Below are positions 1 through 27,643 of a stretch of DNA of 64,000 nt, piece by piece. The translations under genes and the position numbers were made by a program. The stretch covers positions 12,772,001 through 12,836,000 of the forward strand of contig CM114271.1 in NCBI GenBank assembly GCA_050084515.1, written 5' to 3'. The notes under the pieces are model-generated. The model did no database searches, was not told where the DNA came from, and saw nothing but the letters and a program-made list of their open reading frames with translations. Each line of letters starts with the position of its first letter. Position 1 is the stretch's first letter. Origin of the DNA: Blasia pusilla (Eukaryota).

Positions 1-2436
1 GTTGGTGCGACCATACCGCCGGGAGGCCATCAATGTCCTCATTGTCAGGTATCCTCTTTCAGCGTTGGAGTGTGTCATGCATACGTATTTTTCATTGTGT
101 ACGACTTTAGCTCTACGTCCGAGTAGACCAGGCTGGCAGTTCATGTTGGCTCCCATATTCATCCTATTATCAGTGCAATTCAGAGACACATCAAGGAGGA
201 TGTGGCAAAGAAAGTGGCCGAGGTACACAGAAACTCTCCGAGATCAAAGCCCGGAGTGATCAAGTTAACAATAACATTACAAATTTGTGAACAATTGCTT
301 GGAATCCCTGGGCAGGGCGAGATCACGGCTGTTGAGGAGAAACAACTATGGGGAAATCTTGTTGGTCCTAAATACTTACGGAACTTTCTGCGTCAAATAC
401 GAGTACTTGATGGAAAGACGGCCAAAATGACACCATTTCCATAATCAAGGCCAACTCCAGATTTCCATTTATTTAGAGATGGCAATTCATGGGCCAAGGA
501 GGTGAAGGATCGAGGGCTTATGTCTTCAAAATATCAACTACATGGCCGTCCAATGGCCTTGATCTATAAGATCGAGGCCACTCGACGAGGCCAAGATCGA
601 ATGAGGGAAGGGGAAGATCTCTACGGCAGATGAGTAAGCTTTGATATTTGCTACAGAGTGCTGAATGGATGGTTGATCATGGGTGCTCACATTTACAACC
701 ATGTGGAGAAGGGACTCAAAACTATATTTGTCTGTGAGGTAAAAGCAGAAGACGTTGGTAGTTTGAAGATGTGTTGGTTACTCTTATTGGAGGTGGTGAA
801 GGAAAACAAAAGGCCACTTGTGGAAATTTATGGATTCATGGCGGACAATTCACAACCTAGATGGATTGCTATCAAGGAAGGGTTCTGGGGTGGAGAGGTT
901 AAACTAGAGAGGGAAAGGTCGGATGCTTTCCATTGGCAACAGTCTATGACCCGATACACCAAATCTTCCATCAAGGAGAATAAGAGAACAAAGCATGTCA
1001 CTCTACTCCATTGCTCTCAGGACAACAAAACCTTGAAAAAGGCCATGGAGTGCCAAGAAGAACTTTATGGAAGGTGGAGGAAGCATGCAATTGAGGGGAA
1101 GTACAAAGAGTTGTGCTCTTGGCTCAGTGGGTGGACTGTACGAATGAGACATGTTGAGAATTTTTTGAAAAGCTCATGTTTCGAGCTAATGTTGAAAATT
1201 GTTTGAAAAGATGTAGCTAAAGTTGAGAAGCGTGGGAACTATAGGGATTTCAAACCGTAGAAACCAAACAACCCGTCGGATACGATTGGTTGTCTAAGTG
1301 TGCAACCCGTCAAAAACGGACACGTTGCATCAAGAATGTTTGTGCAACCCGATGGAACTTGACTAGTTGCATGAGTGTCACACCCGTCGGAGCCCGACAG
1401 GATGCATGAGGAATGTTTGTGCAACCCGTCAAAACCCGACTAGTTGTATGGATGTGCAACCCATCCAAACCCGGCGGGTTGCAAGTTGCATGTATACAAG
1501 GCTTGCAAATAGTTTGATCCGCATGGGTTGCAAGCCGCAAGGCTGAGATTTAACTCGCTCCGCAGCCCATCAGAATCTGACAAGTTGCGTCTGTCTGCAA
1601 CCTGTCGGATTCTGACTAGTGCGTTTGTATCCGAATCCTCACATTTAGACAGGTTGCGGCTGTCTCCAACTCCTCGCATCTAGACACGTTGCATCAATGC
1701 AAGTTAATTGGAACCCGTCGAATTCCGACAAGTTGCAAAGCTTCGTGTGTGGACACTTCTTGCAAGCCAACGGAATCTGACAGGTTGCACAAGGATTTTT
1801 GAGACCAGACCGGCCTGCTTCTCACAACCCGTCTAATTTCAACGAATTTTAGTAGCAGGTTCCTGGGTGTTGGGTTGCAATAAGAGGTTATTGGGACATT
1901 TCAGGGATGCCTACAACTTGTAACCCGTCTAAATCCAACGGGTTGCATTAGGTGGTTCCTGGGTGCTGAAACACGTCAAAAAATGGCGGGTTGCACAATC
2001 ATTCGTGGGATGCCTCGGATTTTTTCTTCGCTTATAAAGCTATATTCGTTCCTTTTTCAGATTTCCGTCGTTGCAGGGATTGAACATTCATGGAAATGGC
2101 CTGTGCCCTAACACAAGTGGAGCACAGAATGTTCATTCCTCTTGGAGGTCATGACAAGCATGCCAAAGAATTTCACTTGTGGAGGCATGCCAACAAGACC
2201 ATGCAAGAGCAATGCTACGGTCTGCACCATCCCATATCTTCCTCACAAAAGGCATAACTAAAGGAAAGGGGCCTTCGATTTACAAGCTCTATGTCAGGGC
2301 GACTGTAAGATCCGGTGATGAGAAACTCTATGTGGAAGCCTTCAATCGGTGCGTAGTAGGAACTTCCCTCGAGCAAGACGTACACATTGGTGGGGATATT
2401 CGTGGGCGTGTTTCAAGACGTTCCATACAGATGGTG
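1..2436 (+). pseudogene. MULE transposase copy A, N-terminal/central part (frameshifts and stops; intron about 1.17-2.06 kb)
   Basis: RLAVHVGSHIHP (WRKY/GCM-like HxH end), xVSFD, GFMADNS and SDAFHWQQS (DDE-core and CxxH-position motifs). After the acceptor TTTTTCAG at 2060 comes PNTSGA. Confidence 0.75.
1269..1995. repeat. Cluster of degenerate 27-bp palindromes in the transposase A intron
   Basis: Copies at about 1269, 1302, 1344, 1379, 1421, 1456, 1562, 1597, 1710, 1762 and 1920. Confidence 0.85.
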
Positions 2437-2856
2437 GAGGTGCGGTAAGAGGAGAGGAAGAGAGGAAGAGAGGAGAGAGGAGAGAGGAAACTACCCTCAA
2501 CCAAAAGAGATACTTTTTTTTTAAGAGAGATTCCTGTGATTTGAAGAGAGTTTCCGTTGGGTGGAAGAGAGGAAAATTTTTGTGTGATTTTTTTTGCACT
2601 TTTCTGCTCAGTTCTTAAGCACTTCCACAATTTTTTTTTTCTTCCACATTTTGGCAACCCCTCTGAGTCCGACGAGTTGCAAATTGCACAAAATTTAGAA
2701 ACTGAAAAATCAGTGGAATCATAAGTGCGGAACCAATCACTTTTTCCATCCAAGGTCTGAAAAAGTCTATCATTTTCACTTGGCTGAATAGAGTTTAAGC
2801 TCAAAGTGAAGGTTCTGGAAAAATGAAAGTACAATCTAAAACCTCATTTTGCTTCC

Positions 2857-5800
2857 TCAAAGTGGTTTGTTTAAAATACTTTGCACTTCTTTGAAGGACA
2901 GAACTGGTTGGTGGATTCCTACTCCTACCTCCGACTTTCTTAAAACTACAAGCAACACATAGTACATGTGCTTACAAGGGAAATACCTTTTGCCTCTTGT
3001 CTCTCTTTGGACAAAGTCAGCACATGAACATGTGGGAAAGCAACAGATGTGCACCACATACACCCATGTGACACTTGAATTTACAGTGTTGTTCGTGAAC
3101 CAATACATCCTTCCTATTCCATTGCCACTGTGGACATCTTTTGTGGCGATGATCTCCATTTTTGCCTCTCAAGCTGATGCAATTCGCTTTGCTCTCTCCA
3201 CCGTTGGCAGCCTGATAAGACTTGCGGAAAGCACAAGATTCATTTGGGCAGAAGAAGAACTTCAATTGATCCCCAGTCCTTGTGAAACGATCAAAGGTTG
3301 TGAGTCCCCAAAACCGAGGCAGTCGTCATCCAGTCCTTGTACAGTTCTTATTTAGGAAAGTTCCGCATACTCTCCTAATGCCATCAGATCCTTCCCTGCA
3401 AGTGGATCCACGTCCAGGGTTGCTCCAAATATATGCCACCATTTCAGATTGCAATCCACCTCCATGAACAGAATCCCATATTGTTGAGCCACCCCAGCGA
3501 TCGGATGTTGCGAACTTCCAGGAACGGAGGGCTTTTGAAATAAAACATTCATTGATTTTGGAGATGTAACTCCATCACAGATTTGGGAGCAATCCAGGGT
3601 CCCCGAATACTTGGGTGGCGCAATTTCCTCATCAAAATCAATCACCAGATTCGTTCCTCGATGCTGCCTCTTCACCTGCCTGAAGTCAAGATACTTATCT
3701 CGTCTCCACTAGTCTCGTTCGGACTACTCTACCACCATCTGTATGGGACGTCTTGAAACGTCTTGCTCGAGGGGAGTTCCTGCTACGCATCGATTGAAGG
3801 CTTCCACATAGAGTTTCTCATGACTCGATCTCACAGCCACCATGACATAGAGCTCGTAGATCGAAGGCCCCCTTCCTTTTGTTATGCCTTTTGTGAGGAA
3901 GATATGGGATGTTGCAGATTGTAGCATTGCTCTTGCCTGGTCTTGTTGGCATGCCTCCACAAGTGAAATTCTTTGGCATGCTTGTGACAACCTCCACGAG
4001 GAATGAACACTTTCTGCTCCACTTGTGTTGGGGCAAAGGGCATTTTCATGAATGTTCAATCCCTGCAACAACGACACTGTGAGAAGGGAACCAAAATAGC
4101 TCTATGAGCAAAGAAAAAAGCTATTGTCGAAACAACACGGGTTGCAAGTCGGAGGCATCCCATGAATGACTCTGTAACCCGTTGGTTTCTGACGTGTTGC
4201 AACAACCGGGAACCACATGGTACAACCCGTCGGATTTCGACGGGTTGCAAGTAAATTTGGCCATGCGACTTGCAACCCGTCCTTTTCTGACTGGTTGCAC
4301 TCTCAAGCAACCTGTCAACCCGTCTGATTCCGACGGGTTGCAAGTAAATTTGGCCATGCGATTTGCAACCCGTCGGCTTTCGAGTGGTTGCACACTCAGG
4401 AAACCCGTCAATAAGCGACGGGTTGAACACTGAGGGAGGCAACATGTCGCATCCAACAAGTTGTTTGGTTTCTTCGGTTTGAGATCCCTATAGTGCCCAC
4501 CCTTCTCACCTTAAGCTACAACTCTTCAAAAAAAATTCAGCGAGACAAATAAGTGAACTCACCTCCCGCATGAAGTTTCCCCATTGTCTCATTCGTACAG
4601 TCCATCAACTCAACCAAGAGCATAACTCTTTGTACGTCCCCTCAATCGCATGTTTCCTTCACCACCCATGAATTTCTTCTTGGCATTCCATGGCGTGTTT
4701 CAAGGTTTTGTTGTCCTTGCAGCGTTGGAGTAGAGTGACATGCTCCGTCCTCTTATTCTCCTTGATGCAAGATTTGGTATACCGGGTTATAGACTGTTGC
4801 CAATGGAAAGCATCCGACCTTTCCGGTTGAACCTCCCCACCCCAAAACACTTCCCTGATAGCAATCCACCCAGGTTGTGCATTTTCCGCCATGAACCCAT
4901 AAGTTTCCGGAGGTGGCCTTTTTTTTTCCTTTACCACCTCCAATAAGAGTAACCGGCACATCTTCAAATTGCCAACGTCTTCAGCTTTTACTTCACAGAA
5001 AAATATAGTTTTGAGTCCCTTCTCCACATGGTCATAAATATGAGCATCCATTGTCAACCATCCGTTTAGCACTATGTAGCAAATATCAAAGCTTACCCAG
5101 CTACCGTGAAGATCTTCCCCTTCCCTCATTCGATCTATAAGATCGAGGCCACTCGACGGACGTGTCGTTGATATTTTGAAGACATAGGCCCTGGATCCTT
5201 CGCCTCCTTGGCCCATGAACTGCCATCTCTGAATGAATGGAAATCTGGAGTTGGCCTTGATTCTAGCAATGGCATCCATTTCGGCCGTCTTTCCATCCCA
5301 TACCCGTATTTGACGTAGCAAATTCCGGAAGCATTCAGGATTAGCGAGAAATGCGAGATTTTCCCATAGTTGTTTCTCCTCAGCAGCGGTGATCTCGCCC
5401 TGTCCAAGGATTCCAAGAAATTTTTCACAAATTTGTGATGTTGTTGTTAGCTTGATCACTCCGGGCTTTGAACCCGGAGAGTTTTTGAAGACCTCGGCCA
5501 CTTTCTTTGCCACATCCTCCTTGATGTGTCTCTGAATTGCATGGGTCACAAGATGAGTGTGGGAGCCAACATGAACTGCCAGCCTTGTGTACTATGACGT
5601 GGAGCCCAAGTCGTGGACAATGGAAAATATGTATGCAAGACACGCTCCAATGTAGAAAGGGGATGCTTGAAAATAAGGACATCGATGGCCTCTTGGCGGT
5701 ATGGTGGCACCCACCTCATATGGAGTTTCTGCATTCTTGGGGGGGAATTGCGACGTATTGACCCGCCCGTTGCGCTCTATATACATGCATGATGGACTTC

Positions 5801-6569
5801 TATAATCCAAGGCTCCAACGCATTGGCGGCGGGAGACAATCCAAGGACCATCTGGAATTGAAGCACTAGTCCGTTGAAGCCTACACCATCGATGACAATC
5901 AGACTTTCTGTCCATATCCTTCAAGCGTCCTCCATCTTTCTTTTGAGCAAGAGCAGTAAGTGGAGGCAACTAAAAAATACAATTACCATCATACGTGGGC
6001 GGAAACTTGTCGACAAGAATGTGCTTGAACATTTTCAAGGCCAGAGACGATAGCAAACTATTTCTTGATATTCGCAAGAGGAACAAATAGGCAGACAAAG
6101 GGCCTGATTGGTGTTCGACCGATTCAATGAGATTGAAAACATCGGGAATTTCTTCAGGAAGTACAACATTGTAACGAACGTGTGAAGTTGGAGTCGATTC
6201 CGGATCTACTGAGCTAGGAGTTGCAAACGTAGAGCTCAGTGCACTAGGAAATTCTCAACCGTCTACTTGGGAAACAAAGGAATTCAGAGGCAAGCCGTTA
6301 ACTTTGTATTGACCATTTGCTAGAGGTAGGAGATTCCATACTTTATGGTCTGCAATTACAAGTTGGATTGTCTCAGCTATTCTATACTCTGTACCGTCCA
6401 CCCTAACATCCTTGGACACAAAGATGGTTCCAATTTGGAGAAGAAATCGAACTGAGAGAAAATTTTCATCCACAGGTATGAAAGACTCACGAGCTTGCGG
6501 TCGAACGATTTCTGATTGAGGAAGGGCCGCTAGATGACTGCCACAAGTGAGTTTCACATAATTATCCAT
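2857..6569 (-). pseudogene. MULE transposase copy B (Zn-finger DNA-binding region, DDE core, SWIM); 2 exons, disrupted
   Basis: ORF pieces 6255-6599, 5592-5969, 4659-5549, 3724-4077, 3352-3675 and 2857-3159 read as one protein. Motifs: WVSFD, FMAEN (D in copy A), AFHWQQS, NTSGAESVH (third acidic residue), PTCSC...PCKH. Intron 4562-4077 (AG|GTGAGT ... TCACAG). The start codon is tentative. Confidence 0.8.
4130..4430. repeat. Cluster of 27-bp palindromes in the transposase B intron
   Basis: For example 4222 ACAACCCGTCGGATTTCGACGGGTTGC; also 4272, 4315, 4365 and 4401. Confidence 0.9.
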
Positions 6570-6756
6570 TCCCAAAAGATTCCACCAGGAGGAGACCAAG
6601 AATAAGAATTAGGATAAGAATGGGTATGGGAATGAGAATGAGAATGAGAATGTTCAATTTATAGTGAATAGGGACTCAGATTCTCCTGACAAAATTTGAC
6701 TGAAAAGATGAAGATTGGTAGGTGAGATTGTTTGACATGATGGATTCAATTCTGTT

Positions 6757-7440
6757 GCAACCTGTCGGAGTCCGATGGGTTGCAAAATTTGGGAATCACA
6801 GACGTGGGTTACGAAGCACCCAATTCCGTTTTTTGTTTCCGTGTGCCAATGCAAATTGGAAGCCGTCAGAGTTCGTTGGGTTGGGACCCCCTTCATGCCG
6901 ACCAATGCTCTTTTGAGACGATTTTGCTAGCATCAAGCACAAGACATCGCTTGCATTTGCTAAGGTAACTAATCGCTGGGGACTATTACGGGATTGTCCA
7001 ACTCAAGGTAGACCTTGTGACCCGTCGGATTGCAAGAGGTTTCGTGGGAACTATCCGTTGTCGCATTGTTACCCGAGGAATAGAAAAGAGTGCAACCTAT
7101 CTGTAACCGACGAGTTGCCCAAGTACCTTGCCTATTACCCCAAGATGAGGGAAGCGTGCAACCTGTCGACCTCTGACGGGTTGCGCAAGTGCCTCGCCTC
7201 GTAACGCTTACATGAAGGAAGCGTGCGACCCGTCGGCCTCCGACGAGTTGCGCAGGTACCCCGCCTTGTTATCCCAAGACGAGGGAAGGGTACAACCCGT
7301 CGGTCTTCGACGGGTTGCGCGGGTACCTTGCGTTCTTCGCCCAAGACGGCAGAGGCGCGCAACCTGTCAGACTCCGACGGGTTGCTAAGACAGCTCGGCT
7401 AGGAGGGATGCCTCCAACCCGTCAAAGACCGTCGGGTTGG
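6757..7440. repeat. Palindrome cluster between the divergent genes, including a 67-bp tandem array
   Basis: Palindromes start at 6757, 7018, 7092, 7158, 7225, 7292, 7359 and 7414. The period is 67 bp from 7158 to 7359. Confidence 0.9.
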
Positions 7441-7529
7441 TGGTTTTCACGTACAGACCTCCATAACAGCCGACACGTCATCGTCGGAACGACGGTGCGA
7501 CCCAACGGTCAGCCCAACGACTCGAAAAG

Positions 7530-7537
7530 TATAAATA
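7530..7537 (+). promoter_or_regulatory. TATA box of the cargo gene
   Basis: TATAAATA, followed by a pyrimidine-rich stretch, about 250 bp upstream of ATG 7779. Confidence 0.55.
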
Positions 7538-7632
7538 GGCTAGGGTTCGCTCATTTCAGGTTTTTCGTTTCGCGATCTCGATTGCTCTTCAGCGCAGCAG
7601 CGGACCAGATACCAATGGGCGCCTTACACAAC

Positions 7633-7728
7633 GACTCATCGCGAGACTCATCCCAAGACGATTCAAGCGACTCATCAAGGTGACTCATCAAGGCAACTCA
7701 TCCGAGTGACTCATCAACGCGACTCATC
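7633..7728 (+). repeat. Seven (G/A)ACTCATC motifs, mostly 12-13 bp apart
   Basis: Starts at 7633, 7645, 7669, 7682, 7695, 7708 and 7721. Confidence 0.85.
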
Positions 7729-9020
7729 ATGCACAGAAAGTAATTTCGTTGTCGAGGAGGTGGCATTTTTCGGGAATAATGACGAGGAAAAAAAGTCAGG
7801 CAAGCAAGGCTGGGAGCTTCACTCCCAAGTCTAGGACTCGTGCGTCACCATCTCTAGGGCCTCATTCGGCCAATGAGATAAGGCAGCAAGAGATCAAGGA
7901 GCGCGAAAGGGAAGCGGAGATGCACAGGTAGGATCTTCTTGCAAAATGTGTTAAGGAGACGATTGAAAAACAAAACGCAGAGGCCAAGGCATCGCAGGCC
8001 TTGAAGAAAAGGATCTCCGAGGAGAAGCATGAAAAGAAGCGTGTGGACGTGTTGGTGAGGAGAGCGAAATTGACAAAATCTTGAAAGGAAAAAGGATGCC
8101 ATTGAAGAAAGCCCGCCCATCCAACCAAAACTGTTGAGATGCAGGAAATGTCTTCGATGAAGTCCGGGGAAACAATCAATATAAAATCGGCTAAGGAAAC
8201 GGGCAAAGTTCAAGTGACGAATGATGAGGTCATGAGGACCGCCTGCGTGGAGATGGTGGACATCTCTGAAGAAGCAGGAGAGCAATCTTCCTCGTCTCTT
8301 AGCCCCGGGGAAGAAATCGACCTCTATCAGATAGACGAGTTTCCACTGGACTTGCCAACTACTGTCCCAGAGCAATTGGCAGGCCAAGACACCAACCCAA
8401 TCTTCGAGCGGGTAAGATACGATCTTTGTTCTTTGAGTTATGTGAAGGCCCATGTTGCAATTCATTGGCAATTGAGTGTAGTTTATTGACCTTATCCCCG
8501 TTGTGATAGGTGGTAAAGTAGATGGCAATGATGGAGGGCCAAAACGCCCCGAGAATTCCACTTTTCCAATTGTAGACAATGGAGTACGTTTGCAAAATTC
8601 AATCTGACGAGGATATTGCGAAGCTGAAATAATCAGCAGCGACAACATCCTACGTTGATAGCTTCCCTACGTTCTATGTTCAGCATTACGATGAACATGG
8701 AACCCAAACGCTAGGTACGGAGGAGGACTTGGAAGCTCTCGAAACATTCTGGAGGATGAGAGATCAGGAATTCATAAGGGCGATTGAGGGGACGGAATTC
8801 AACTGGATGCGGAATCTGTATTTCTTCATCTGGGATGGAAACCACAAGTTCATGGCGTGGACCCAGTTTGCAGAGGAGCGCCAAAACTCATTGGAGGCGC
8901 ATTTCTGCGTGAAGGCAGTAGTGCTACATCCATACCCTCATCACATGGCGACGGTGGAGATGGCCATGTATACCATGAACACGGCTCCACCAACTCTCCT
9001 TTTCCTTTATTTTGATTGCT

Positions 9021-9667
9021 GCAAACCGTCGGACTCTGACGAGTTGTTTAACTAATGGTAACAAAACATCAGATGCCTTAAAGCAACTCGTCAAAGTCCG
9101 ACGAGTTGCTTGACTGGCTGCAATTTTTAGGATGTTTTAGGCTGAAAGCAACTCGTCGGAGTCCGACGAGTTGCTCGACTGGCCGCTGTTTTTATGATAT
9201 TTTTGGCCGAAAGCAACTCGTCCAAGTCCGACGAGTTGCTCGACTGGCCGCTGTTTTTAGGATGTTTTTGGCCGAAAGCAACTCCTCGGAGTCCAACGAG
9301 TTGCTCGACTAGTCGCTATTTTTAAGATGTTTTTGGCCGAAAGCAACTCGTCGGACTCCGACGGGTTGCATTCGTTGGCACGAGAAGGTGATCAGAGTAG
9401 GGGCGCTTGATTTTTGGCATCAAATTGCAGCTTTACTTGAAATTGGGCAACGTGTCGGACTTCGACGGGTTGACATGTTCACTTTTCCCGTGGAGACCAC
9501 TCTTTGAATACAAATTATCTGACAACCTTTCAGAGTCCAACGAGTTGAAACAAGGCAATCACAAATCTGAATGCAATCCGTCGGACTCCGATGGGTTGCA
9601 AAATTTAGCTCATAGCTACCATTCTGACCATGAGGTGTGACGACGTGTCGGAGTCCAACTGGTTGCA
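9021..9667. repeat. Palindrome cluster in cargo-gene intron 1, including a 5 x 65-bp tandem array
   Basis: Array palindromes start at 9083, 9148, 9213, 9278 and 9343. Further copies at about 9021, 9447, 9521, 9573 and 9640. Confidence 0.9.
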
Positions 9668-11789
9668 GGAACCCATGTAGCTTGCAAAATTTCTTATATT
9701 GAATTTGGATGTGCAAGATTGTATCCGAGGGGAATGTCACCCACCATTGGATACAGGATTGCGATCAGGGGAAGAAAGTGCTAACGATGCACCCGAAAGA
9801 GTACAAGGGGTTCTTGGGCAACGCCCTTGTAAATGAGATGCTGGCAAAGGGGGCTCAAATAAAAAAAAGACTTGGGCAAATAAATTTATTTCCCAAGATG
9901 CAGCTGTGACAATCCTTTGCTGGTCAAAGATACAGACGGCCAAGAAGAGCGCTTCATTGGGGTCGGAGCGGAGGTAGAAAGTGTATGTATCTGAGCGTGC
10001 TAAGTTCATCCAAGCTGCAGTATCTGCAACTACGAAGTACACTGCAAGAAAGATCCAGGGCTACATCGCCATTCTCAACCCCGAACTTGGCCTCGATTTC
10101 TACAAGGAGCTCAAGGCGATAATCAAGCGCCAGCGGAAGAGAGATGAAGATCCGTAGGGTCCGATTGGGGAGAAAGTGTCTCTCGACCGCGTCCATCGAT
10201 TTGCCTCGTCTGGAATTTCGGAATTTAGGAGAATCCGACTGATGAAAATCAGTCTCGAGGGCACAGAGGCCCAAAAGAGGGTGGCACACCATCCTCCGGG
10301 TGTCTCTGATCCAGTGATCTCCCACAGGCTCTGTGAATGGTCATTATGGGACGCGTTGCGGCTTCTCGAGAAGTCTATGCTCGTGGGTCTCCAAGCGAAG
10401 CTAAAAAAAATAGAGGCAGTTCCAAAGGAAGCAAACCTAGAGAGTGCTGAAGATTTTGAACTTTGGATGGATGACATCCAGGACAAGCTCATAAAAAATC
10501 CAGGCTTCATGACGATGTTCAAGGATCACATACTCCCTCATGTGGACCTGATGAAGAAATAGAGGCAAAGAAAAGGGATTTCGCAAAGAAAAAGTGAGAT
10601 CTTCAGGAGCAGGCGGCCGATGCATCTTGACTAAGAGCTGCCCGACGCATGGTGTTCAGGTACCTTGTCCATTGTAAGAATGCAGGTACGTGGCAAAAAA
10701 TACCGGCAGCCTCCAAATTGTGGGCTTCTCCACCTAATGGAGAGACATTTTCCATGTACGACGTGGAGATGGCTCAAAGCATCTCTGACTGGGAGGTGGA
10801 GAATTGCCCCATCTGGTTGGACTTCAACGACCCTGAGGACATAACCAAGAAAAATCTACGCCTGCTGATGCAGTGGCCGCAGGTAGGGACGACATCCCCA
10901 ATTTCGTGCAGCCTGAAGACTTTTTCGAAGGAGATGGGGAGAAGCAAGCCCTCGAGACAGCGGAGTTGGTGTCCAAGGTCGTCACCGCCAAGGACAAATC
11001 TACATCGGGTCTCAAAGCCAAGGCGAGGGGATCGAAGAATTCCGAGGCCAAGTCTTCCCAAAAAGAGGCTGAAAATTCAAGGCGAGAGGAAAAATTGTCC
11101 GGGCAAGTGGGGAGAGAGGGTCGGACCAGGTCCTCCGCAAAAAAAACTCCACCAAAGTCTGAGGTAATAGAGACCCCAACAACCCGACTGCAGACTCGGG
11201 AGAAGCGGAAGTGAGAGGCACCAGGTTTGTCCCAAGGAGTAGACAAGGATGTGGAATACACTCCATCATCCTTGGGAAGACATAGAGAAACAACGACCCG
11301 GACAAGCATCATCATTCACTGAACGAATCTTATGGATGAGTTGCAAAGTTTCAATTCCCAAGCGTTGACACCCGCCATCGACAAATTGACAATGCTGGGA
11401 CGTAAGCTTCAACGAAACGGGCACGCTCCCAGGACGGTCCATGGGGAGGTTGAGGAGGTGGCGGTGGATCTCCTCGTCGCTGATTTGCCCTTGGGATTGC
11501 GCTTGTGGGACGAGAATCCGTCCGACGGTGTCCTAGACTGGAATGTCACTCTTTCTTATGACCAGATCCCGCTCCTGATTTCCTTTGAAAACACTTATCT
11601 CAGTGACACGGGCTATTTTTTGGTCTTGACAGGAGGGAGCAAGGATGAGCTCTTCAACCTACAGTGCGTCAAGAGGTTGCTGAAGTGGAGGACGGCGCAA
11701 TCGTGGGTCATCAAGAACAAGTACCCACTCCGATCCGCGACGAGTCAAATCCGGGTAAGGGCTCTAAATCCATATCCAAATTGTCTTGC

Positions 11790-12110
11790 TCTCACGGGTT
11801 GCATCTCTGCATGCAACCCGTCCGATTTTCTGAGTTGAAGACTTCGGTGGTGCAATCTGTCTGAAAGCAACGGGTTGCAAATTTACCGCAAGTCTCCATT
11901 GGGTGAATGCAACCCGTCGGAACTCGACGGGTTGCAAGTGCGTATGCTTTTCCTTGTGTTTTTGGAATGATGCAACCCGTATGAATGCGACGGGTTGCTC
12001 TTAGCCAACCATGGGCTGCTCTAAGCCAACAACCTGTCGCCTTCCGACGGGTTGCTCATGGCAAAAAGAATCACTAACACTTGTAAAACAACCCGTTGGA
12101 CTCTGACATG
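11790..12110. repeat. Palindrome cluster in cargo-gene intron 2
   Basis: For example 11909 GCAACCCGTCGGAACTCGACGGGTTGC; also 11812, 11852, 11972 and 12029. Confidence 0.85.
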
Positions 12111-12788
12111 TAGCTCCAATGTTAGGACTATAACTAAGTTCTCTGGGGTTAAGCGAAGCTCTTTGGGAACAAGTTGCACATTGTGCCACCATTCTGATAG
12201 TATACCTTTCTTGTTGTTGCATACAGAAATTAGCACTTTCTTGTTGTTGACATTTTTTCCAACCTGCTTCTTTAAAGATGGACCACTCCTTTGTCTACAA
12301 TTTTGTAAGGCCTGAGCACAACTTCAAGTGTTTTAGATCCTTGATCTAGTGGATCCATGCTCCGATGGGTATAGCTTAGATAATTTATACAACCCCCCCC
12401 CCCCCCCCCCCCCGGGAATTTACATGCAAAATGGTACCCCCTTACTTGGAGGAAGGGAAAAGTCGCCAACGTTGATGCAAACACTCATCGAGCTCTGTTC
12501 AAGGCCGAGTGACTTGGTGTTCGACTTAGTGGGCCTTTCAAGGGCGAGTATCAGAGGCGCCTCGCAGAGTGGAAGAACATTCTCTGCCTTGAGGGAAGGC
12601 ATGAACTATTTGACCTTTGCAAAGGGGCAAAGGCAGATTATGACAGGCTAGTTGGGGCGTACAACTCTCCTCCGAAGCCGAGAGCTCCGGTTCCAGACCC
12701 ACCATTGGTAGTGATACCATCGTCACTTCCCACGATTTTGAAAATTGGGAGGGCAAGGCCGACAATAATTTTGGAAGAGCTCTCGGAC

Positions 12789-13890
12789 GATGACGAGGCA
12801 GAAGAATTCATAGAATAGATCAAATGTACAGTTCCGAGCTTCCTTCAGATGTAATAAAGGACAAGATTTTTTCGAACGATGATGGTGTTTGTAAAAGGTT
12901 GCTAAATATCTTTTTTGGTCTTGTCAATTGTGATTGTCTATGTACTCTGACAGTTCATATTGCAACCCGTAGGATTGCCACGGGTTGCAACTTTTCACTT
13001 TGTGACCACTGCACCTTTTTAACCACTTCCAAGCAACCTGTCGGATTCAGACAGGTTGGTTGCGTGAGTGATCAGACTCTTTCCCTGTTAGTCCAACTTT
13101 ACAGGCATTCTGGTGGGCTTCTTCACTTTGGCACCTTCCCCTAGTTTTTTCAAACAAGTCTTAGGCTTCCTCTCTTCTCTAAGACGTGTTGGATTCCTAC
13201 TACCTGGCTGAGGACATGATGGTGTCTCCAAGGACGGAGCACATATTGATACTTGATGGGTATAACCTTGCAGAGCGTACAAGATTTACTGCCGAGGAAG
13301 GCGGTGGGACTCAAATCAATTTACATGGGACCGTTATGGTGTACCTAGGGGGTTGCCAAGGCTCTCGAATTTGCCAACATTTTTATCCCCGTCTACAATC
13401 GGCCACAAGAGCCACTTGTATCCCAAGACATTCCTTTTGTATAGGAACCTAGGAGAGTTGGGAGTAAAGTTGTAGATGACGAGGCTGAAGAAATCATAGA
13501 CTAGATCACATGTATATTTCCGAGCTTCCTTTGGATGTAATAATGGACAAGATTTTTTCAAACGATAATGGTGTTTGTAAAAGTTTGCTGAATATTTTTT
13601 TTGGACTTGTCGATTGTGTTCGTCTAGCTACTCAGAATGTTTATTTTGCAACCCGTCTGATTCCGACGGGTTGCAACTTTTCACTTTTTCACCACTGCAA
13701 CTTTTTAACCATTTCCAAGCAAGCTGTCGGATTTTGACAGGTTGGCTGCTTGAGCGATCGGAATCTTTCCCTATGAGACCAACTTCTGAGGCATTGTGGC
13801 AGGATTCTTCACTTTTGGCTCGTTCCCCTAGTATTGTCAAACCAGTCGTAGGCTTATTTTCTTCTCTAAGACGTGTTAGATTCCTATTGC
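12789..13890 (+). repeat. Diverged direct duplication of about 410 bp (12789-13200 and 13475-13890), each copy with two palindromes
   Basis: GATGACGAGGCAGAAGAATTCATAGAATAGATC... versus GATGACGAGGCTGAAGAAATCATAGACTAGATC..., colinear through ...CTCTAAGACGTGTT. Confidence 0.85.
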
Positions 13891-14583
13891 TTGTCGGATT
13901 GCCATTTTGGATTCCCAATCATTTGGATCTTCGTGGGTGCAGGGTGGAATGGAATCACTTCTCAAAATCTTTCCTTTGTTATGGTGAGTTTGCTTGCAAG
14001 GGGTGCAAGCCATCTGATTCCGACGGGTTGCAAGAGTTGCAACCTGTAAAATTCCGACGGATTGGGAGGGATGCAGCTTCTCGGTTTCTCAGCTTTAGGA
14101 TCTGAATGAAGGAACATCAATTCCTCTTTACTCCAGACAGCTAACAATCTTTTGGTTCAATTATTGTCTCATGTGTACACATTTCACAAAGTTGGTCTTT
14201 ATTTGAACCTTTCATTGAGATGAGATTGCTACTTTTGGTCACATTATTTGCCAATGGTCCTCCAAAAAAATAGCCTTGGGCACAACTTAGTGTAGATTTA
14301 GACAGAAAATGTGAAAAAACTTAGGCTCACATGGAGAGTGATGGGAAAATGTTTGTAGTGGTCTTATGATGTCTACTAGTTTTTTGCCCCCTAGAAAAAG
14401 GAGGTTTCTTTAGGCCCGAACGTGGACCACTACCTACTCTCTTCTAAAGATTTCATGAATTTGAAAGCAAACAAAAATTTCAAATATGTCAAAAAGTTTT
14501 GAAAAGAGGAGGCGGATTTGGCCCTTTTTTTTAAAAAGAGACTCTCCTCTCTTCCTCTCTCCTGCCAGAATACCAGCCCCTGG

Positions 14584-15734
14584 GATGGTGGTAGAGCAGT
14601 CCGAGCGAGACTCGTGAAGACCATATAAGTATCTTGACTTCAGGCAAGTGAAGAGCTAGCATCAAGGAACAAACCCAGTGATTGATTTGGATGAAGAAAT
14701 TACGCCGCCTAGGTATTTGGAGACCCCGGATTTCTCCCAAGTCAGAGTAGAAGGAACTTCTCTAAAATCAGTGAATTTTTTATTTCAAAAGCCTTCCGTT
14801 GCTGGAAGTTTGCAACATCGAGTCTATGGGTTAGTTCAACAGTATGGGATTCCGGTCACCAAGGTGGATTGCAACCTCAAAAGGTTGCATATATCTTGGA
14901 GCAACCCTGGATGTGGACCCACTTGCAGGGCAGGATCTGATGGTATAAGGAGAGGATGTGGCACTTTCCTAATTAAGAACTGTACAAGGACTAGATGACG
15001 AGTGTGTGGCTTCGGGGAACTCAAAACCTTTGATCATTTCACGAGGACCGGGGATCAATTGAAGTACTTCTTATGCCCAAATGAATCCTATGCTTTCCGA
15101 AAGTCTTATCTGGCTGCCATTGGAGCTCTAGGGAATACCCCACGATTTGGCCCATTGCCACAGGTACAAATTGCACTAAGGACAAAGTGGACAATCTTAC
15201 AAGTGACTGTTTTAGACTCGTAGACGGAGGAAGTTCGATGCATGTTCGCATTACAGAGACCTTTGCATTTCGGATTCAACCCAAGATTGATGTCAACATG
15301 TATTCGGAGAAGGTGGATGATCTCAATCCACTATTTATGTTTGAGTCTAGAAATGGGATGAAGAGAAAGAGAATATGTAGGCCAACAGTGGAGAGAGCAA
15401 AGCAAATCGCACATCAGCTTGGGAGGCAAACATGGACATCATCGCCACAAAAGATGTTTAGAGTGGCAATGGAATAGGAAGGATGTAGTGGGTCAGGAGC
15501 AAAACTGTAAATTAAAGTGTCACAGGGATGTATGTGGTGCACATATGTTGCTTTCCCACATGTTCTTGTGGTGACTTTGTCCAAAGAGAGACAAGTGGGA
15601 AAAGGTATTTCCCTTGTAAGCACATGTTTTATGTGTTGCTTGTAGTTTTAAGACAGTCGGAGGTAGGAGTAGGAATCCACCAACCAATTATGTCCCTCAA
15701 AGAAGTGCCAAGTATTTTAAACAAACCACTTTGA
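14584..15734 (+). pseudogene. MULE transposase copy A, C-terminal part with SWIM zinc finger
   Basis: Homologous to the reverse complement of 3740-2857. PTCSCGDFVQRETSGKRYFPCKHMFYV is a CxC-xn-CxH SWIM finger. Stop at 15734. Confidence 0.8.
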
Positions 15735-16501
15735 GGATGCAAAATGAGGTCTTAGATCTGATTTTCATTTTCCAGAATCTTCACTTTGAGCTTGAACTCT
15801 ATTCAGCCAAGGGAAAATGACAGATTTTTTCCAGACCTTGGATGGAAAAAGTGATTTGTTCCACATTTATGATTCCAATGAATTTTCAGTTTTTTAAATT
15901 TTGTGCAAGTTGCAACACGTCGGATTCAGACGGTTTGTCGAAATGTGGAAGAGGAAAAAAATTTGTGGGAATGCCTAAGCACTGAGAATAAAAGTGCAAA
16001 AAAAATCACACAAAAAGTTTCCTCTCTTCAACCAAATGGAAACTCTCTTTAAAAAAAATCATCTCTTTGGGTTGAAGGTAGTTTCCTCTCTCCTCTCTTC
16101 CTCTCTTCCTCTCCTCTTACCGCGCCTCAAGTGTTGGGTAACTACCACTTGGGCTCGCCCTAGCGTCGACGGGACAAATCACTCTGTCTTGGGGTTTGGG
16201 GTGATCTTACTCGTGAGTGCATGAGTGAACTTAGTGACGCGCCTAAGTTGAATACGAGAGCGACCCAAAAGTAGTACGAATTGTGTACCATGTAAACAGG
16301 CGGGATGTTTACGAGTTGTGAGCCAAGAGAATTCTTAGGTAGCAAACTTAGTTAGCTTATTTGATAGGTTAGACCGGTTGAGAATTGGTCTAAGCTCATC
16401 GAAGAGGAGATGCTAAACGATGTTAAGTGTTGCACGCAAAAACCTAAGACTTAAGCCAAAAGAGGAATTTTAGGTTGGCTACTAAAATTAAGAAGGACAC
16501 A

Positions 16502-21869: not shown

Positions 21870-22841
21870 TAGAGGTAGTTTTTTTTTTTTTTCCTAATAA
21901 TTCATGTTATAATTGTCAAGTGTATTTAATAGTTTTATGGTGTGTTATGCAGATGGGGAGACTGCGGCATGGTGATATCACAAATACAACGATGTCAAGT
22001 ATGCATATGAACGTACAAAAGAACCCTTCTCCAATGTAAGCACCTCGCTTTACATTTGCATAATGATGACTTCTATGATACTTTTGTCATATATGTACGT
22101 TTATCATGTGTTCTAACCCATTCCATAAAATCCTAAGGATTTGCAAGACTATCGAAAATTGATGCGTGCAAAAGCACAACAAAAATGGTGTATCTGTTGT
22201 AAGGACATTCTACTGCAACAAACATGAAAGATGAACTCCTTGCCGAGACATCTCCAACGTAAGTCTACTCCACTAATCATCATTTAGCAAGCCCAAATTT
22301 ATATCTTCCATAGTCCCAACTTCTAATATTATTTGCTTTGTTTCTTCAATTGTTGTGTTATTCCAGACTTCCCATTCCATTGAATCCTATCGATATACGT
22401 GATTTCCGAAAGGTTGCACGTGGTGAGGCTTAAAAATGAAAATGTGCCATTTGTGCGGATAAAATGGAAGTTCTCAAAGAAAAAAAGAAGGAAAGCGCTC
22501 CATGTTCAAGTTGAGCCTTCTTTGGTAGTCGAGGCTCTTCCAACTATTCCAATTATGGAGATTTTGACTCAAATCATAAGGTATCTATCCTACTTTTTAT
22601 CCTCATTCGAAATCAGCCATATATGATTTATGTCTATTGTTTATAATATATGTTCATTATTTCTTCAGGCCTTCCAATGCGAATAGAGTGATGTTGGGAG
22701 AAAATCAATAAGTTCATCTTCAATCCCCAAAAGATATTTATGTTCCGCCAAGACCAACACTTCAATTATCTACCTTTGCATTCCATGAAGTTATTGAGAA
22801 TCCTTCTACAATCAAGCCAACTACTTATGTAACACCAAGAG

Positions 22842-25800
22842 TTGAGTTACCTACCGCTCTCCCTATTCCGGGTGAACTATTGGAAGGTGTACATGAAGTG
22901 CTTGAGAATACTTCCAGTCTTCCCCATCCTTGGGGATGAAGTAATGTCAAGAGTAGGTCATGTGTCTTCCACCTCTAATGGAGTTGTGTTACCTATAGAA
23001 AATACCCCACTACCAAATGCTTCTATAATTCACCAGGTGTCTAATGTTGATAGGATAATAAGGGTAAATTCCTTAATTAATCTTGTAAGGAGACCAAATT
23101 TCCAAGAAAGTGATATTAGGAAGTTGCGATTACACAAGAGTTTGAGTCCTACTAGTGGTCGTCATACATTGGGTTCTATGATAGAAATATGCCCATCATG
23201 TTGTGCCTTACATTGGAAATGTGAAATGGTGAAAGATACAAAGTTTATCGACTCACCATATGACATGTGTTATGGCCATGGGAGAATACATTTTCCCCTC
23301 TTGAAATTTTCTCCTATATTTCTGATTTCGGGTGTTGGTCCTAGAAGTCTTCATTTCCTTAAACATTCTCGAGCTTACAATTCCGTGCTTCAACTTGCAC
23401 CTTCTGGTGTGCACGTAAATGAACAAGTTGGTGGCATTGGACACTTCACGATCCAAGGAGGGATCTATCATTCTATTGGACCCTTACATCTTGATATAGG
23501 GGGGCATCCCCAATTTGCTCAACTCTATATTCATGATACTGCGAATGAATTGGAGAATCATGGAAGATTTATGTCTAGATCTTCAGATCTTAACATGGAC
23601 ATCTTGAAAGGGCTACAAGAGATGTTGCATGAGTGCAATCCATATGTGAAGATCTTTTGTCATATGGCATATGAAGCAAGTGATCTTAATATACAGATCA
23701 TTCTCAAGGCAAGTAAGAGAGATCTTGATGCAAAGCGTTATAACTTACCAACTACTTCTGAGGTTGCGGAAATTTTACCTGGTGATGGAAGTGAACACGT
23801 TGAATATCGTGATATCATTGTATGACAACATGGAGGAGGAGTGAAGTGCATATCTGACCTCAATGAAGCATATATTCCATTACACTTTGCTCTATTATCT
23901 ATCTATGGTGAGCAAGGTGACATGTTGGAATATCCTACGGGAGACTCGAAGGGACTCGAAGACCCGAATATCTAGGTCATGTCACTCATGGGGAAGAAGG
24001 ACACATTGACGCTTCAGATGATTTTATGTAGGAGGAAAGATTTGCTGTTGATAATGTTGAGGAAAGAAGGTCAAAGAGTGATACCGCCTTACAATTTGCA
24101 TGTTTTCGACTTCAAACGCGGATTGGAGGTTAAGATGACAATCGGTTATTGCGATTTGGTTACTTACTCAAGAATATATGGTCGAAACTTATGCCAATGT
24201 AGAGATGCAAAGATTATCATGGGTCAAATTAAATGAGAAGGAGTTGAGGGCTGAATTATATCAAGGTTTAAGGATGCCATCCATCAACATGTTGTTGATA
24301 GTAGAAGGTTTGGGAGATACATAGTATTACCCTATTCTTTTATTGGAGGGCCACGTCATATGCATCAATTGAATCATGATGCAATTGCAATCGTGAGACA
24401 GTTGGGAAAGCATGACAGTTGGGAAAGCCTGACTATTTTTTGACCATGACATGCAATCCAAAGTGGAAGGAAATTACATCTGCCTCATTACCCTATTAAT
24501 CAGCTGCGAACCGACTCAATTTGGTCGTGCGAGTTTTTTAGAAGAAAAAGAAGGAGCTATTACGACTTATCATCAAAAATAAAATATTAGGTCGAGTTTT
24601 CGGATGCATCAATGTGGTGGAATTCCAAAAAAGAGGTTTGCCACATGTTCACATTTTTATTATTTTAGGTCTTGAGGATAAACCATGTACCACTTTTGAT
24701 TATGATCGTATCATTTCAGCAGAAATCCTAGATCAGTCTACCCATCAAAGGTTGTATTCTACTATTGCTAATTGTATGGTTCACGGTCCACGTGGACCAT
24801 TAAATCCCAATGCACCATGTATGGATAAGGAAACAAAAAAGTGTACCAAAGGCTATCCTAAAGCTTTTGCAGCCAACATGACAGAGACGGAAGATGGTTA
24901 CCCGATCTATCATAGGTAAGGATATTTTGATCTTGGCTTTTGTTTCTTGTATTTTTATTGTAAGCCATATAACATCCATGTAATCATGATTTTTTATATA
25001 TATTCTTAGATTGGAGAATGGAAGGGCAGTAACTAAGCATGAACATTCATTGGATAATCGTTGGGTCGTGCCCTACAATCCTATGTTGTGCACACTCTTT
25101 GATTGTCATAGTAATTTGGAGATCACAAGTAGTGTCTATGCCATGAAGTATTTATATAAATATGTATATAAGGGGTTCGAGGCGGTGACATTTAACGTTT
25201 TGAAAGATATGGATACATCCATCGCATTGGGAGTCATTGATGAGAGATCGTCATATATTGATGCGAGGTATGATTCTACTAATTGATGATTTTTTGTTGA
25301 CCTATGTGTTTCTAAATATCTTTTAGAATTTGATTTAGGGTCTTCTAATATATTCGACATTTTTCTTCCAGATATATATCTTGTTCAGAGGCATGTTGGC
25401 GACTCTTCAAGTTTAGTCTACATGTTGAACTTCCAAGTATTGTGCAATTAGCTACTCTTCTTCCATAGCAAAAAATGGTGTACTTCAATGATGTTGACTC
25501 TCCCGCAGATATTTTGCAACTAAATAGAGAGACAACTCTAACACAATGGTTTGCAACTAATCTATCCGACTCCACAGCCTGACAATATATGTATGTAGAT
25601 TTTCCTTCATATTATTGTTGGACTAAAAAGAGATGGATTTAGAGGGTACAAAAAAGAAATGGTTTTGGCCATCCCATTAGCCGGTTATACCTTACTCATC
25701 CAGGTGAATACCCAACAATTTATCCTATGCTTTTTTCTTTACATTGGATTTTCCTCTTATATTCATTCATTTTAAAGTGAGTGAATGATTGTGGAAAGGG

Positions 25801-27643
25801 ATGAGCTGATTTATTTCACACATGTATAGGTGAAGGAGAACGTCATTGGTTGAGATTACTCCTCCACAATGTTCAAGGAGCAACTACATACAAATGTTTG
25901 AGAATTGTTGATGAAGTACTGTGTCTAACATTCAAGGAGGCTGCAATCCAATTGGGACTCCTTGAGGATGATAGGGAAGTATTCTCCTGCTTTGAAGAAG
26001 CTTTTATGATCCGTACGGGTTCTACACTTCGCCATCTGTTTGCAATTATTCTAGCTTACACCACATCGACTCAACCTGATACACTTTGGAGTCAATTCTT
26101 GAGTCTCTTGGTAGAAGATCTCTTAAATGAACGACGTGAGGTAAGAAATTATCACTATCACTCCTTACACCATTTGTTTCCTTCCTCAATAGTAACATAG
26201 TTTTTAATGAAGAAACTAACAATGATTTGGACATTTTCAAAACTTTGCCATTGCAAAAAACATGAGTTCCTAGTCTTCCCGTTGATGATGCTATAATTAA
26301 AACTACATTGTTGGAAGTCCACTATTACTTACAAGATCAAGGAAAGAGATTGTTTGACTTTCCTGACATGCCTCAAGCTAATTTCGAAAGCCTTCGTTCC
26401 TATTCATATTTAGAGGAACAAGAGCTATTATATGATATTGAGGAATTATTTGAGCGCATACAATTTGGAGAATTGTGTCTAAATGAAGGACAACGTGTTG
26501 TTTGGGATGCTATACATGATGAGCTTGGTAAAATATGTGTGAATGATCCATAATCTCCAAAAGTTTTTTTCAAAGATGGTCTAGGTGGAACGGGAAAAAC
26601 ATATTTATATAATCTTCTGCTTGCAAGTGTAAGGAGTGCAAGAGGTATAGCTTTAGCAGTAGCATCATCTGGAATTGCTGCTCTATTGTTAGATGGAGGA
26701 TGTATTGCCCATTCACGCTTCAAGTTCCCTATCAATCTTTATGAGAGCTCTACTTGCAAGTTAGTGCCATTACCTACTTTACATCAAATTCTATCAATAC
26801 ATATAATCTCTCAAAGTATTGAGAATTCTAATTTACTTCTCTGTATCGTTTGTAGTTTATCAGTCAATATTAATCAAGCACGCTTAATCCGTGATGCGAT
26901 ACTCATTATATGGGACAAAGCACCTCTGGCTCATCGTCATGCATTCGAGGCCGTGAATCGCACTTTACAAGATATCATGGGAATAGTCTCTGATGATCTA
27001 AGACAAATACCATTTGGTGGAAAACTCATGATATTTGGTGGTGACTTTCGTCAAGTTTTTTCTGTTGTTCGTCATGGGGATCGGCCGCGAATCGTGCAAG
27101 CCACTATAAAGAGGTCATCTCTTTGGTCTTATGTTAAGGTCATGAAGTTGAAAACAAACATGCGAGTTCAAAGGTTGGAAGGTCATTTGCGTATTGAACA
27201 ACAAGCTTTTGCTGATTGGTTATTGAAAATGGGAGAGGATTGTGTACATTTACACCCTCATTTGGGAGAAGACTTTATACATTTACCATCTGAAATTGTC
27301 ACTAAGAATAATAAGATATGCGATCTTATTGAAGAATATTGGAGATTGAGTTTTCATTCCACGTATCCCATTGATTGCATCTAATTGAGGTTTGCCATTT
27401 GATTTATGTAGGTTTCAATTCCCTACTCGTCCGACGTCTGCTATGACTATTAATAAATCTGAAGGTCAAATTTTGCAAAAAGTTGGAATTTACTTGCCTA
27501 CTCCCGTATTTTCCCATGGTCAATTGTATGTAGCATTATGTAGAGTAGGGAAGAAAAACTCTATCCACATTACCATTGGAAGTGACGAACATTCAAATGT
27601 AAAAGGTGATTGTACACGAAATGTAGTGTATAACGATGGATGA
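22842..27643 (+). pseudogene. Helitron Rep/PIF1-helicase (RepHel), multi-exon, with stops, frameshifts and an apparent internal deletion near 27340
   Basis: CPSCCALHW, PQFAQLYIHD, RYNLPTTSEVA, VEFQKRGLPHVH (HUH), KYLYKYVYKG, GLGGTGKT (Walker A), GGDFRQ, AMTINKSEGQ, FSHGQLYVALCRV. Confidence 0.92.

Follow-up and report, generated by a model that had tools for sequence, protein, structure and literature searches.

Layout of the locus

The object of this study is a gene-like region on the forward strand (7779-12818) of a 64,000-nt stretch of contig CM114271.1 from Blasia pusilla, referred to below as the window. An original prediction, made from the letters alone, had described this region as an intron-containing fusion between a ParB/Srx part and a beta-class amino-methyltransferase (motif IV before motif I) with atypical catalytic motifs. 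A Pfam scan of open reading frames (ORFs) showed the window to be eukaryotic and repeat-rich. The region starts with an ATG at 7779, its last frame closes with a TAG at 12816-12818 and the conceptual protein comprises about 1004-1124 residues. No second copy of the coding parts was found within the 64-kb window. The constituent parts are listed here with the tblastn matches of two relatives (P0001 and P0002) presented in the next section.

7779-8411 (+): putative N-terminal charged region; ATG at 7779, GT at 8412-8413, stops at 7929, 8082 and 8103
8633-8982 (+): ParB-like exon; IWDGNHKFMAW at 8828-8860, with K at the P-motif arginine position
9022-9598 (no strand): palindrome array in the first long intervening stretch; period 65, 4.5 copies at 9080-9369
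9903-10562 (+): conserved middle region, part 1; tblastn P0001 E 2e-7, P0002 E 1e-9
10565-10880 (+): conserved middle region, part 2, in a different frame; TGA at 10595 and 10628; tblastn P0002
10881-11322 (+): charged low-complexity linker, in the frame of the methyltransferase-like exon; TGA at 11212 and 11320
11323-11754 (+): methyltransferase-like module, N-terminal half; motif IV equivalent DLPL at 11482-11493
11755-12277 (no strand): intervening stretch; GT at 11755, AG at 12276-12277, four palindromes at 11853-12054
12278-12588 (+): methyltransferase-like module, C-terminal half; frame change around 12335, 21-C run at 12393-12413
12591-12818 (+): C-terminal tail, past a one-base frame change; acidic stretch, TAG at 12816-12818

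The sequence landmarks on which the original prediction relied were recovered on the forward strand, namely IWDGNHKFMAW (with GNHK at 8837-8848), VDLLVADLPLG at 11464-11496 (with its DLPL) and EKSPTLMQTLIELCSRPSDLVFDLVGLSRAS at 12457-12549. Likewise, the frameshift announced near 12588 was real: one base is missing around 12588-12590, where ...GRTFSA gives way to EGRHELFD (12591-12614). The proposed junction 11754/12278 is bounded by GT at 11755-11756 and AG at 12276-12277. Upstream of it, 10837-11757 forms one frame that is uninterrupted except for two TGA codons, and therefore no intron is needed in that stretch. The charged region 7779-8411 was covered by no homologue and may be non-coding. 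Inside the C-terminal methyltransferase-like exon, the 21 C at 12393-12413 translate as a proline run; read mapping skipped 12383-12424 as a repeat, and the length of this run thus lay outside its coverage.

Relatives and the conserved middle region

A HMMER search with exon 11323-11757 against 1.84 billion representative proteins yielded five matches at E <=1e-3. Three of them were retained as relatives: P0001 (305 aa, E 6e-9), P0002 (488 aa, E 2e-8) and P0005 (228 aa, E 5e-4). P0002 comes from the liverwort Riccia sorocarpa, where it is annotated as a hypothetical protein, and shares with P0001 39% identity in the methyltransferase-like half and 32% in the upstream region. The other two matches, the DUF5122 repeat protein P0003 and the TPR protein P0004, were judged to be repeat-driven and excluded. 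P0001, P0002 and P0005 themselves matched no Pfam, NCBIfam or informative PHROG family. A word-index search with P0002 gave nothing among longer proteins and only P0002 itself near its own length, and metagenome scans with the methyltransferase-like exon of the window and with P0001 revealed no relative.

Since the homologues also aligned (tblastn) to positions 9903-10562 and 10631-10834, the middle region belongs to the family. Its second part displayed 39% identity to residues 200-273 of P0002 (tblastn, E 6e-9). The gene models of P0001 and P0002 end 3-21 residues beyond the point equal to 11754, which suggests, at the sequence level, a conserved boundary at this position.

A methyltransferase-like module with altered motifs

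Curated libraries stayed below threshold for this module. N6_N4_Mtase (PF01555) was the sole Pfam match of the C-terminal piece (12337-12651; profile positions 165-189 of 221) and scored E 0.19 and 12.1 bits, under the 26.7 cut-off, while all three PHROG matches of this piece were DNA methyltransferases (best E 0.0046). The N-terminal half and the three homologues, which together form the four-sequence family alignment A1, had no Pfam match even at E 10; none of six NCBIfam queries matched, and PDB sequence searches with the family alignment and with the C-terminal piece returned noise only. For this reason an independent viral profile was built. From 74 viral loci related to E. coli YhdJ, 45 ORFs were taken and those outside 220-370 aa removed, which left 41 viral YhdJ-like N6_N4 methyltransferase ORFs and a hidden Markov model (HMM) of 278 positions. 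PF01555 was present in each of the five ORFs of this set that were checked.

Among 2138 six-frame segments of the window, the viral HMM ranked 12337-12648 (+) first and 11323-11835 (+) second. The two segments were collinear on the profile (positions 205-242 and 41-128, respectively) and each match was weak by itself (E 0.41 and 1.6); the chance that two segments named beforehand would occupy ranks 1 and 2 was about 2.5e-4, among 90 segments of at least 100 aa. When the module was read through with X at the breaks, it aligned as a single domain over profile positions 41-246 of 278 (11.0 bits, E 8.8e-6 with Z=1), a score that none of 200 shuffles matched. Comparison of A1 with the viral methyltransferase alignment by hhalign gave 85.5% (P 5.8e-6) from motif IV to strand 5, against 0.3% for the reversed template and 19.6% for the best of 29 valid column shuffles. 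The language-model look-alikes of the methyltransferase exon were the Rossmann methyltransferases AviRa, UPF0020 and MTS (0.83-0.89), which serve as leads.

Within the single aligned domain, the motif IV equivalent (11482-11493) lies N-terminal of the motif I equivalent (12523-12543), the latter belonging to the KSP...LIELCSRPSDLVFDL VGLSRAS stretch inside 12457-12549. The predicted beta-class module with non-canonical motifs was supported by the six-frame ranking, the one-domain alignment, hhalign and PHROG. We conclude with moderate confidence, from these sequence comparisons, that a beta-class amino-methyltransferase gave rise to the module.

In amino-methyltransferases, the aromatic residue of the motif IV tetrad stacks on the flipped base and its loss usually abolishes activity. 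The catalytic (D/N/S)-P-P-(Y/F/W) tetrad was found neither in the window copy nor in the homologues. In A1, D54 and P56 were invariant in the four sequences, with L/L/L/I at position 55 and L/K/T/T at position 57. The resulting tetrads, DLPL in the window and DLPK, DLPT and DIPT in the homologues, were set by hhalign on the DPPY columns. In the kind of alignment of homologues that had been proposed, all four family sequences thus show D-[L/I]-P-x instead of DPPY, which makes it a family trait rather than decay of the window copy. The FxGxG of the S-adenosylmethionine-binding loop was likewise absent, DLVGLSRAS being aligned to dpfmGsgtt of the profile; this region was read from the dead window copy only, as the homologues do not reach it.

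Decay of the window copy

The copy at 7779-12818 is a pseudogene. Its inferred frames contain ten stops (7929, 8082, 8103, 9975, 10155, 10560, 10595, 10628, 11212 and 11320) and at least four frameshifts (near 10560, 10880, 12335 and 12588). The TAG codons at 9975 and 10155 fall inside same-frame tblastn alignments of both P0001 and P0002 and are therefore coding lesions, not intron signals. The original prediction had left a choice between a decayed copy and an altered family. Both apply: this copy is dead, and D-[L/I]-P-x occurs in all four family sequences.

Differences from other genomic copies pointed the same way. In the inferred frames, 16 were non-synonymous and 3 synonymous, these 19 sites being drawn from 40 differing sites listed (144 more lay outside that list). 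With 16 of 19 differences non-synonymous, there was no sign of constraint.

Palindromes and inverted repeats

The region is embedded in a repeat block that spans 16 kb or more, is flanked by inverted repeats (1.3-1.5 kb) and contains numerous copies of a 25-nt palindrome, CAACCCGTC-N7-GACGGGTTG. With up to 3 mismatches, this palindrome had 38 matches, where 0.01 was expected by chance. All of them lie within 1303-15937, with none in the other 48 kb of the window. Tandem Repeats Finder grouped some of the palindromes into arrays at 4223-4411, 7107-7385 and 9080-9369 (periods 50/93, 67 and 65). The second and third arrays flank the ParB-like exon. Two of the three long intervening stretches of the gene consist mostly of palindrome arrays, the same as in the flanks, and the size of the array at 9022-9598 varied among genomic copies (joint 8983->9148). 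The palindromes also give recurring pseudo-peptides in several frames, which could mislead ORF reading. The features outside the gene are the following.

7107-7385 (no strand): palindrome-unit tandem array directly upstream of the putative start; period 67, 4.2 copies, palindrome matches at 7093-7439
2452-3739 (no strand): left arm of the inverted repeat pair, 1.3-1.5 kb; (GAGAGGAA)n tract at its outer end (Tandem Repeats Finder 2452-2489)
14584-16113 (no strand): right arm of the inverted repeat pair; last palindrome at 15913-15937, none beyond
4659-5591 (-): unclassified 310-aa open frame, with a shorter inverted duplicate at 634-1203 (+)

Inverted repeats of the block (I1, I5, I7 and I9-I14) were 82-92% complementary. 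Its left part, 1-5714, displayed a palindromic arrangement of its own, with 1-1295 inverted relative to 4437-5714 and 2020-2381 relative to 3758-4119; a 1.3-kb core inside it (2474-3739) recurs inverted at 14584-16098. The 310-aa frame on the opposite strand could possibly encode a transposase.

Copy number, transcripts and putative introns

Genomic reads mapped to the region were mostly close to the window but not identical with it: 1328 of 1381 displayed 95-99% identity and 53 were at >=99%. Partial fits numbered 1093, and bin depth was uneven (from about 1 to 56). At position 8244, all 71 genomic reads differed from the window, and most other genomic copies diverged upstream of 8226 (64 loose-end reads). 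This pattern indicates a family of many diverged copies. Other copies carried a GTAAGT-type donor from 8983 (13 reads), right after the ParB-like exon, followed by a shorter array. Judged by its sequence, this donor is the best hint of at least one real intron.

Transcripts were scarce. Over 6.5 kb, three RNA runs contributed 13, 27 and 9 reads (49 in total), mostly on palindromes, with a few reads of run X15 at 12425-12858. No splice joint was seen among these 49 reads, and none of them supported the junction 11754/12278, for which an RNA check had been proposed. The original prediction had also taken spliceosomal introns as a mark of long residence as a host gene. That argument was not supported as it stood: besides the lack of splice joints in the three runs, two of the three long stretches in question are largely palindrome arrays and the region behaves as a multi-copy repeat. 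In run X16, 21 reads broke off at 9144 and continued into sequence unlike the window, and at position 9181 all 16 reads had C for G (9144-9186), which suggests transcription of a related palindrome-array copy at another place in the genome.

The ParB-like exon

The best Pfam match of exon 8633-8982 was DUF1015 (E 0.014 and 14.8 bits, under the 25.8 cut-off). By the accounts in the sources concerned, DUF1015 was tied by Foldseek to the serine kinase SerK, and SerK was described as a ParB-CTPase fold (10.1101/2025.10.10.680097). Language-model leads in a protein atlas were clusters with ParB_N (11% of members) and DUF6551, at 0.92-0.93. The arginine of the P-motif GxxR, which nucleotide binding requires, was replaced by lysine (G-N-H-K at 8837-8848) in the window copy, which alone covers this exon. 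A word-index search with the exon among longer proteins gave nothing. For want of a more diverse ParB profile, PF02195 was sought in 4 large viral records and was absent from them; a prophage ParB-like seed retrieved 80 loci that were nearly identical, and jackhmmer over these loci gained nothing. Since no homologue covers the exon, it is linked to the methyltransferase part by same-strand adjacency only.

Other features of the window

Downstream of the gene, a 300-nt direct duplication (12789-13088 and 13475-13774, 86% identity, 686 nt apart) starts in its last codons. Positions 13127-13211 likewise recur at 13814-13898, which shows the 3' flank of the gene to be tandemly duplicated. Farther away, an ORF at 26554-27381 (+) encodes a PIF1-like helicase (Pfam E 1e-61) typical of Helitron Rep/Hel proteins; a long ORF upstream of it, at 22833-23822 (+), had no family match. 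An ORF at 47501-48352 (+) with an ARS2 (SERRATE-type) domain (Pfam E 3e-25) probably belongs to an ordinary host gene, and a copia-type reverse transcriptase fragment (RVT_2, E 3e-30) occurs at 62180-62893 (-). Rfam and tRNA scans of the window gave no match.

Discussion

Comparison with known systems

The systems compared here are taken as the relevant passages of the cited sources describe them. The closest is found in the brown alga Ectocarpus, where the 21.5-kb family Sola1-1_Ec32 carries, opposite its transposase, a 1104-aa gene with a ParB-like part and an N4C/N6A methyltransferase (PMC12477816). Its authors proposed that this accessory protein binds and modifies the element's own DNA, and they credited green-algal cases to Iyer et al. 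2011. By description, the region studied here has the same order (a ParB-like part, then an amino-methyltransferase part), a similar conceptual size (about 1004-1124 residues) and a place in a large repeated element with a further ORF on the opposite strand. It differs from Sola1-1_Ec32 by its plant-like host, its liverwort relative, the lack of a recognised transposase, the D-[L/I]-P-x tetrad and the death of the copy. It also differs from the haptophyte and chlorophyte clades described by Iyer et al. 2015.

In the red alga Bostrychia, Plavaka elements encode PAG2 (an N6A methylase with SET) and PAG3 (ParB with a 2-oxoglutarate oxygenase), and the ParB-fusion gene adjoins tandem arrays of inverted repeats, the protein being proposed to bind its own element (10.1101/2025.02.11.637652). 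Here too, tandem arrays of inverted repeats (7107-7385 and 9080-9369) adjoin the ParB-like coding part, which appears to be fused to a domain of nucleic-acid-modifying type. Yet ParB is joined to an oxygenase in Plavaka and the methylase is a separate gene, whereas both parts apparently form one gene here.

Fusions of ParB with N6_N4 methyltransferases are described in phages and prophages, together with a ParB-terminase locus (PMC4738411; 10.1101/2025.10.10.680097). The order of the two parts is the same and the module aligned to viral YhdJ-like enzymes from motif IV to motif I. In contrast to these fusions, the region has a family-specific middle of about 600 residues, intervening sequences and a eukaryotic genomic setting, and it retained neither the P-motif arginine nor DPPY nor FxGxG. 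Another class of enzymes, the Dam-type (D12 class) methyltransferases of DIRS and long terminal repeat retrotransposons, has a conserved Asn-Pro-Pro (10.64898/2026.05.21.726589). They resemble our case, as read here, in that transposable elements of eukaryotes took over a DNA adenine methyltransferase of prokaryotic type, and they differ from it by their class, their position in retrotransposon polyproteins and the absence of ParB.

Amino-methyltransferases of bacterial type also occur as host enzymes, and bdelloid N4CMT is reportedly a eukaryotic host N4C methyltransferase. The likeness of the region to bdelloid N4CMT and to Marchantia DN4MT1 lies in this bacterial-type enzyme within a eukaryote, one of these two lineages being a liverwort. 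Marchantia DN4MT1a/b keep TSPPY, and DN4MT1 is highly expressed late in spermiogenesis; the term 'ParB' does not occur in the main text of that preprint (10.1101/2021.02.12.428880). The family presented here, unlike DN4MT1, lacks the tetrad, is multi-copy and was nearly silent in the three RNA runs. By analogy, a transposon accessory gene of the kind already reported in algae offers a better frame for it than a DN4MT1-like host enzyme.

Origin of the region

The reading that we favour, with some reserve, is that 7779-12818 is a decayed copy of a ParB-like/methyltransferase-like gene that a large DNA transposon carried as an accessory, in a genome that is plant-like and probably that of a bryophyte; the family of this gene is without the canonical tetrad. 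The intact ancestor would have encoded about 1000-1120 residues in three parts: a ParB/Srx-like domain at the N terminus, a long middle peculiar to the family and, at the C terminus, a domain derived from a beta-class N6A/N4C DNA methyltransferase. If ParB proteins and the algal cases are taken as a guide, the 25-nt palindromes arrayed throughout the element may have been recognised by the ParB-like and middle parts, and the DNA of the element itself would in this way have been reached by the methyltransferase-derived domain. This domain was more likely a non-catalytic DNA-binding or scaffold module than an active methylase, because the family tetrad D-[L/I]-P-x has no aromatic residue and the FxGxG loop is gone in this copy.

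Several observations weigh against this reading. The Pfam scan revealed no recognised transposase domain in the repeat block, and the 310-aa opposite-strand frame had no Pfam family up to E 10 and no PDB relative. Neither ends of an element nor target-site duplications were identified, the left side running past the edge of the window. The genomic run was matched by species label only, so that part of the reads at 95-99% could stem from a divergent individual instead of paralogous copies. The ParB-like exon and the C-terminal half of the methyltransferase module lie beyond the reach of all three homologues. On the structural side, AlphaFold2 gave unusable models, both for the four-sequence alignment (mean predicted local distance difference test, or pLDDT, 34.1) and for the ParB-like exon as a single sequence (47.3). 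The exon, moreover, gave no match to PF02195 in the Pfam scan, noise only against PDB sequences, nothing in tblastn against phages at E 10 and no similarity to a prophage ParB-like protein by phmmer. Of the ParB/Srx assignment made originally, there remain the sub-threshold DUF1015 match and the language-model leads, set against the missing PF02195, PDB and phage matches, and the sequence-based ParB-likeness of the exon is accordingly weak.

Another reading is that one or both resemblances are chance motif matches in a family of an unrelated fold. No curated family reached its threshold, PDB sequence searches gave noise only, both fold predictions were unusable and the language-model leads for the methyltransferase exon stayed below 0.9 for every named family. 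For the methyltransferase part, however, four partly independent tests (six-frame ranking, collinear alignment, hhalign and PHROG) agreed and their controls were clean. Chance resemblance in one or both parts is thus improbable overall, while for the ParB part it remains a live explanation. More weight is due to a pseudogenised paralogue within an ordinary family of host genes. In that case, a single acquisition from bacteria or phage would have been followed by intron gain and then duplication, outside any mobile element, and the palindrome arrays would be unrelated satellite or miniature inverted-repeat transposable element insertions. The Riccia sorocarpa relative is indeed annotated as an ordinary hypothetical protein, candidate GT...AG boundaries are present (as is the GTAAGT-type donor at 8983 in other copies), the homologue gene models stop near the 11754 boundary and no transposase was identified. 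Yet many fragments of 95-99% identity with different flanks and neutral-looking differences fit repeat dynamics better, the palindromes are restricted to exactly the 16-kb block, and the mere three relatives among 1.84 billion representative proteins fit repeats masked by annotators. We therefore regard a host paralogue as unlikely. A fragment of an endogenous large DNA virus (a giant virus or virophage-like one) with a phage-type ParB-methyltransferase gene is a further candidate: YhdJ-like beta-class methyltransferases were present on giant-virus contigs (GVMAG records) among the 74 viral loci, and ParB-N6N4 methyltransferase fusions are described as frequent in phages (10.1101/2025.10.10.680097). 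But there was no viral hallmark domain among 12 scanned ORFs of 154-413 aa, no relative of the methyltransferase-like exon in the metagenome scan and none of the ParB-like exon in the phage tblastn; the donor-like sites and the long eukaryote-only middle region common to the liverwort protein ill fit a recent insert. A viral origin is accordingly very improbable.

The transposon reading can be carried further, into a more specific and unlikely version. It would make the region part of a land-plant (bryophyte-lineage) giant-transposon family with plasmid-like self-recognition, in which a ParB-like head and a pseudo-enzyme methyltransferase serve dozens of parS-like palindromes. The protein would load on the palindrome arrays and mark, tether or shield the DNA of the element without methylation. 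METTL14, which carries EPPL in place of DPPW, would be an analogy for such a non-catalytic pseudo-enzyme domain.

Significance

For annotation purposes, the region is a dead repeat copy and not a candidate N4-methylcytosine or N6-methyladenine enzyme of the Marchantia DN4MT1 type. Taken with the palindrome arrays, the loss of the tetrad throughout the family suggests from sequence alone that the intact proteins may bind their own DNA in a sequence-specific manner, with or without methylation. ParB-fusion accessory genes of giant transposons were only recently noted in brown, red and green algae, and our literature search, confined to main texts, turned up no such gene for bryophytes or ferns. 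If true, the presence of a related family in a genome of plant-like character, with a relative in a liverwort, would extend this algal class towards land plants.

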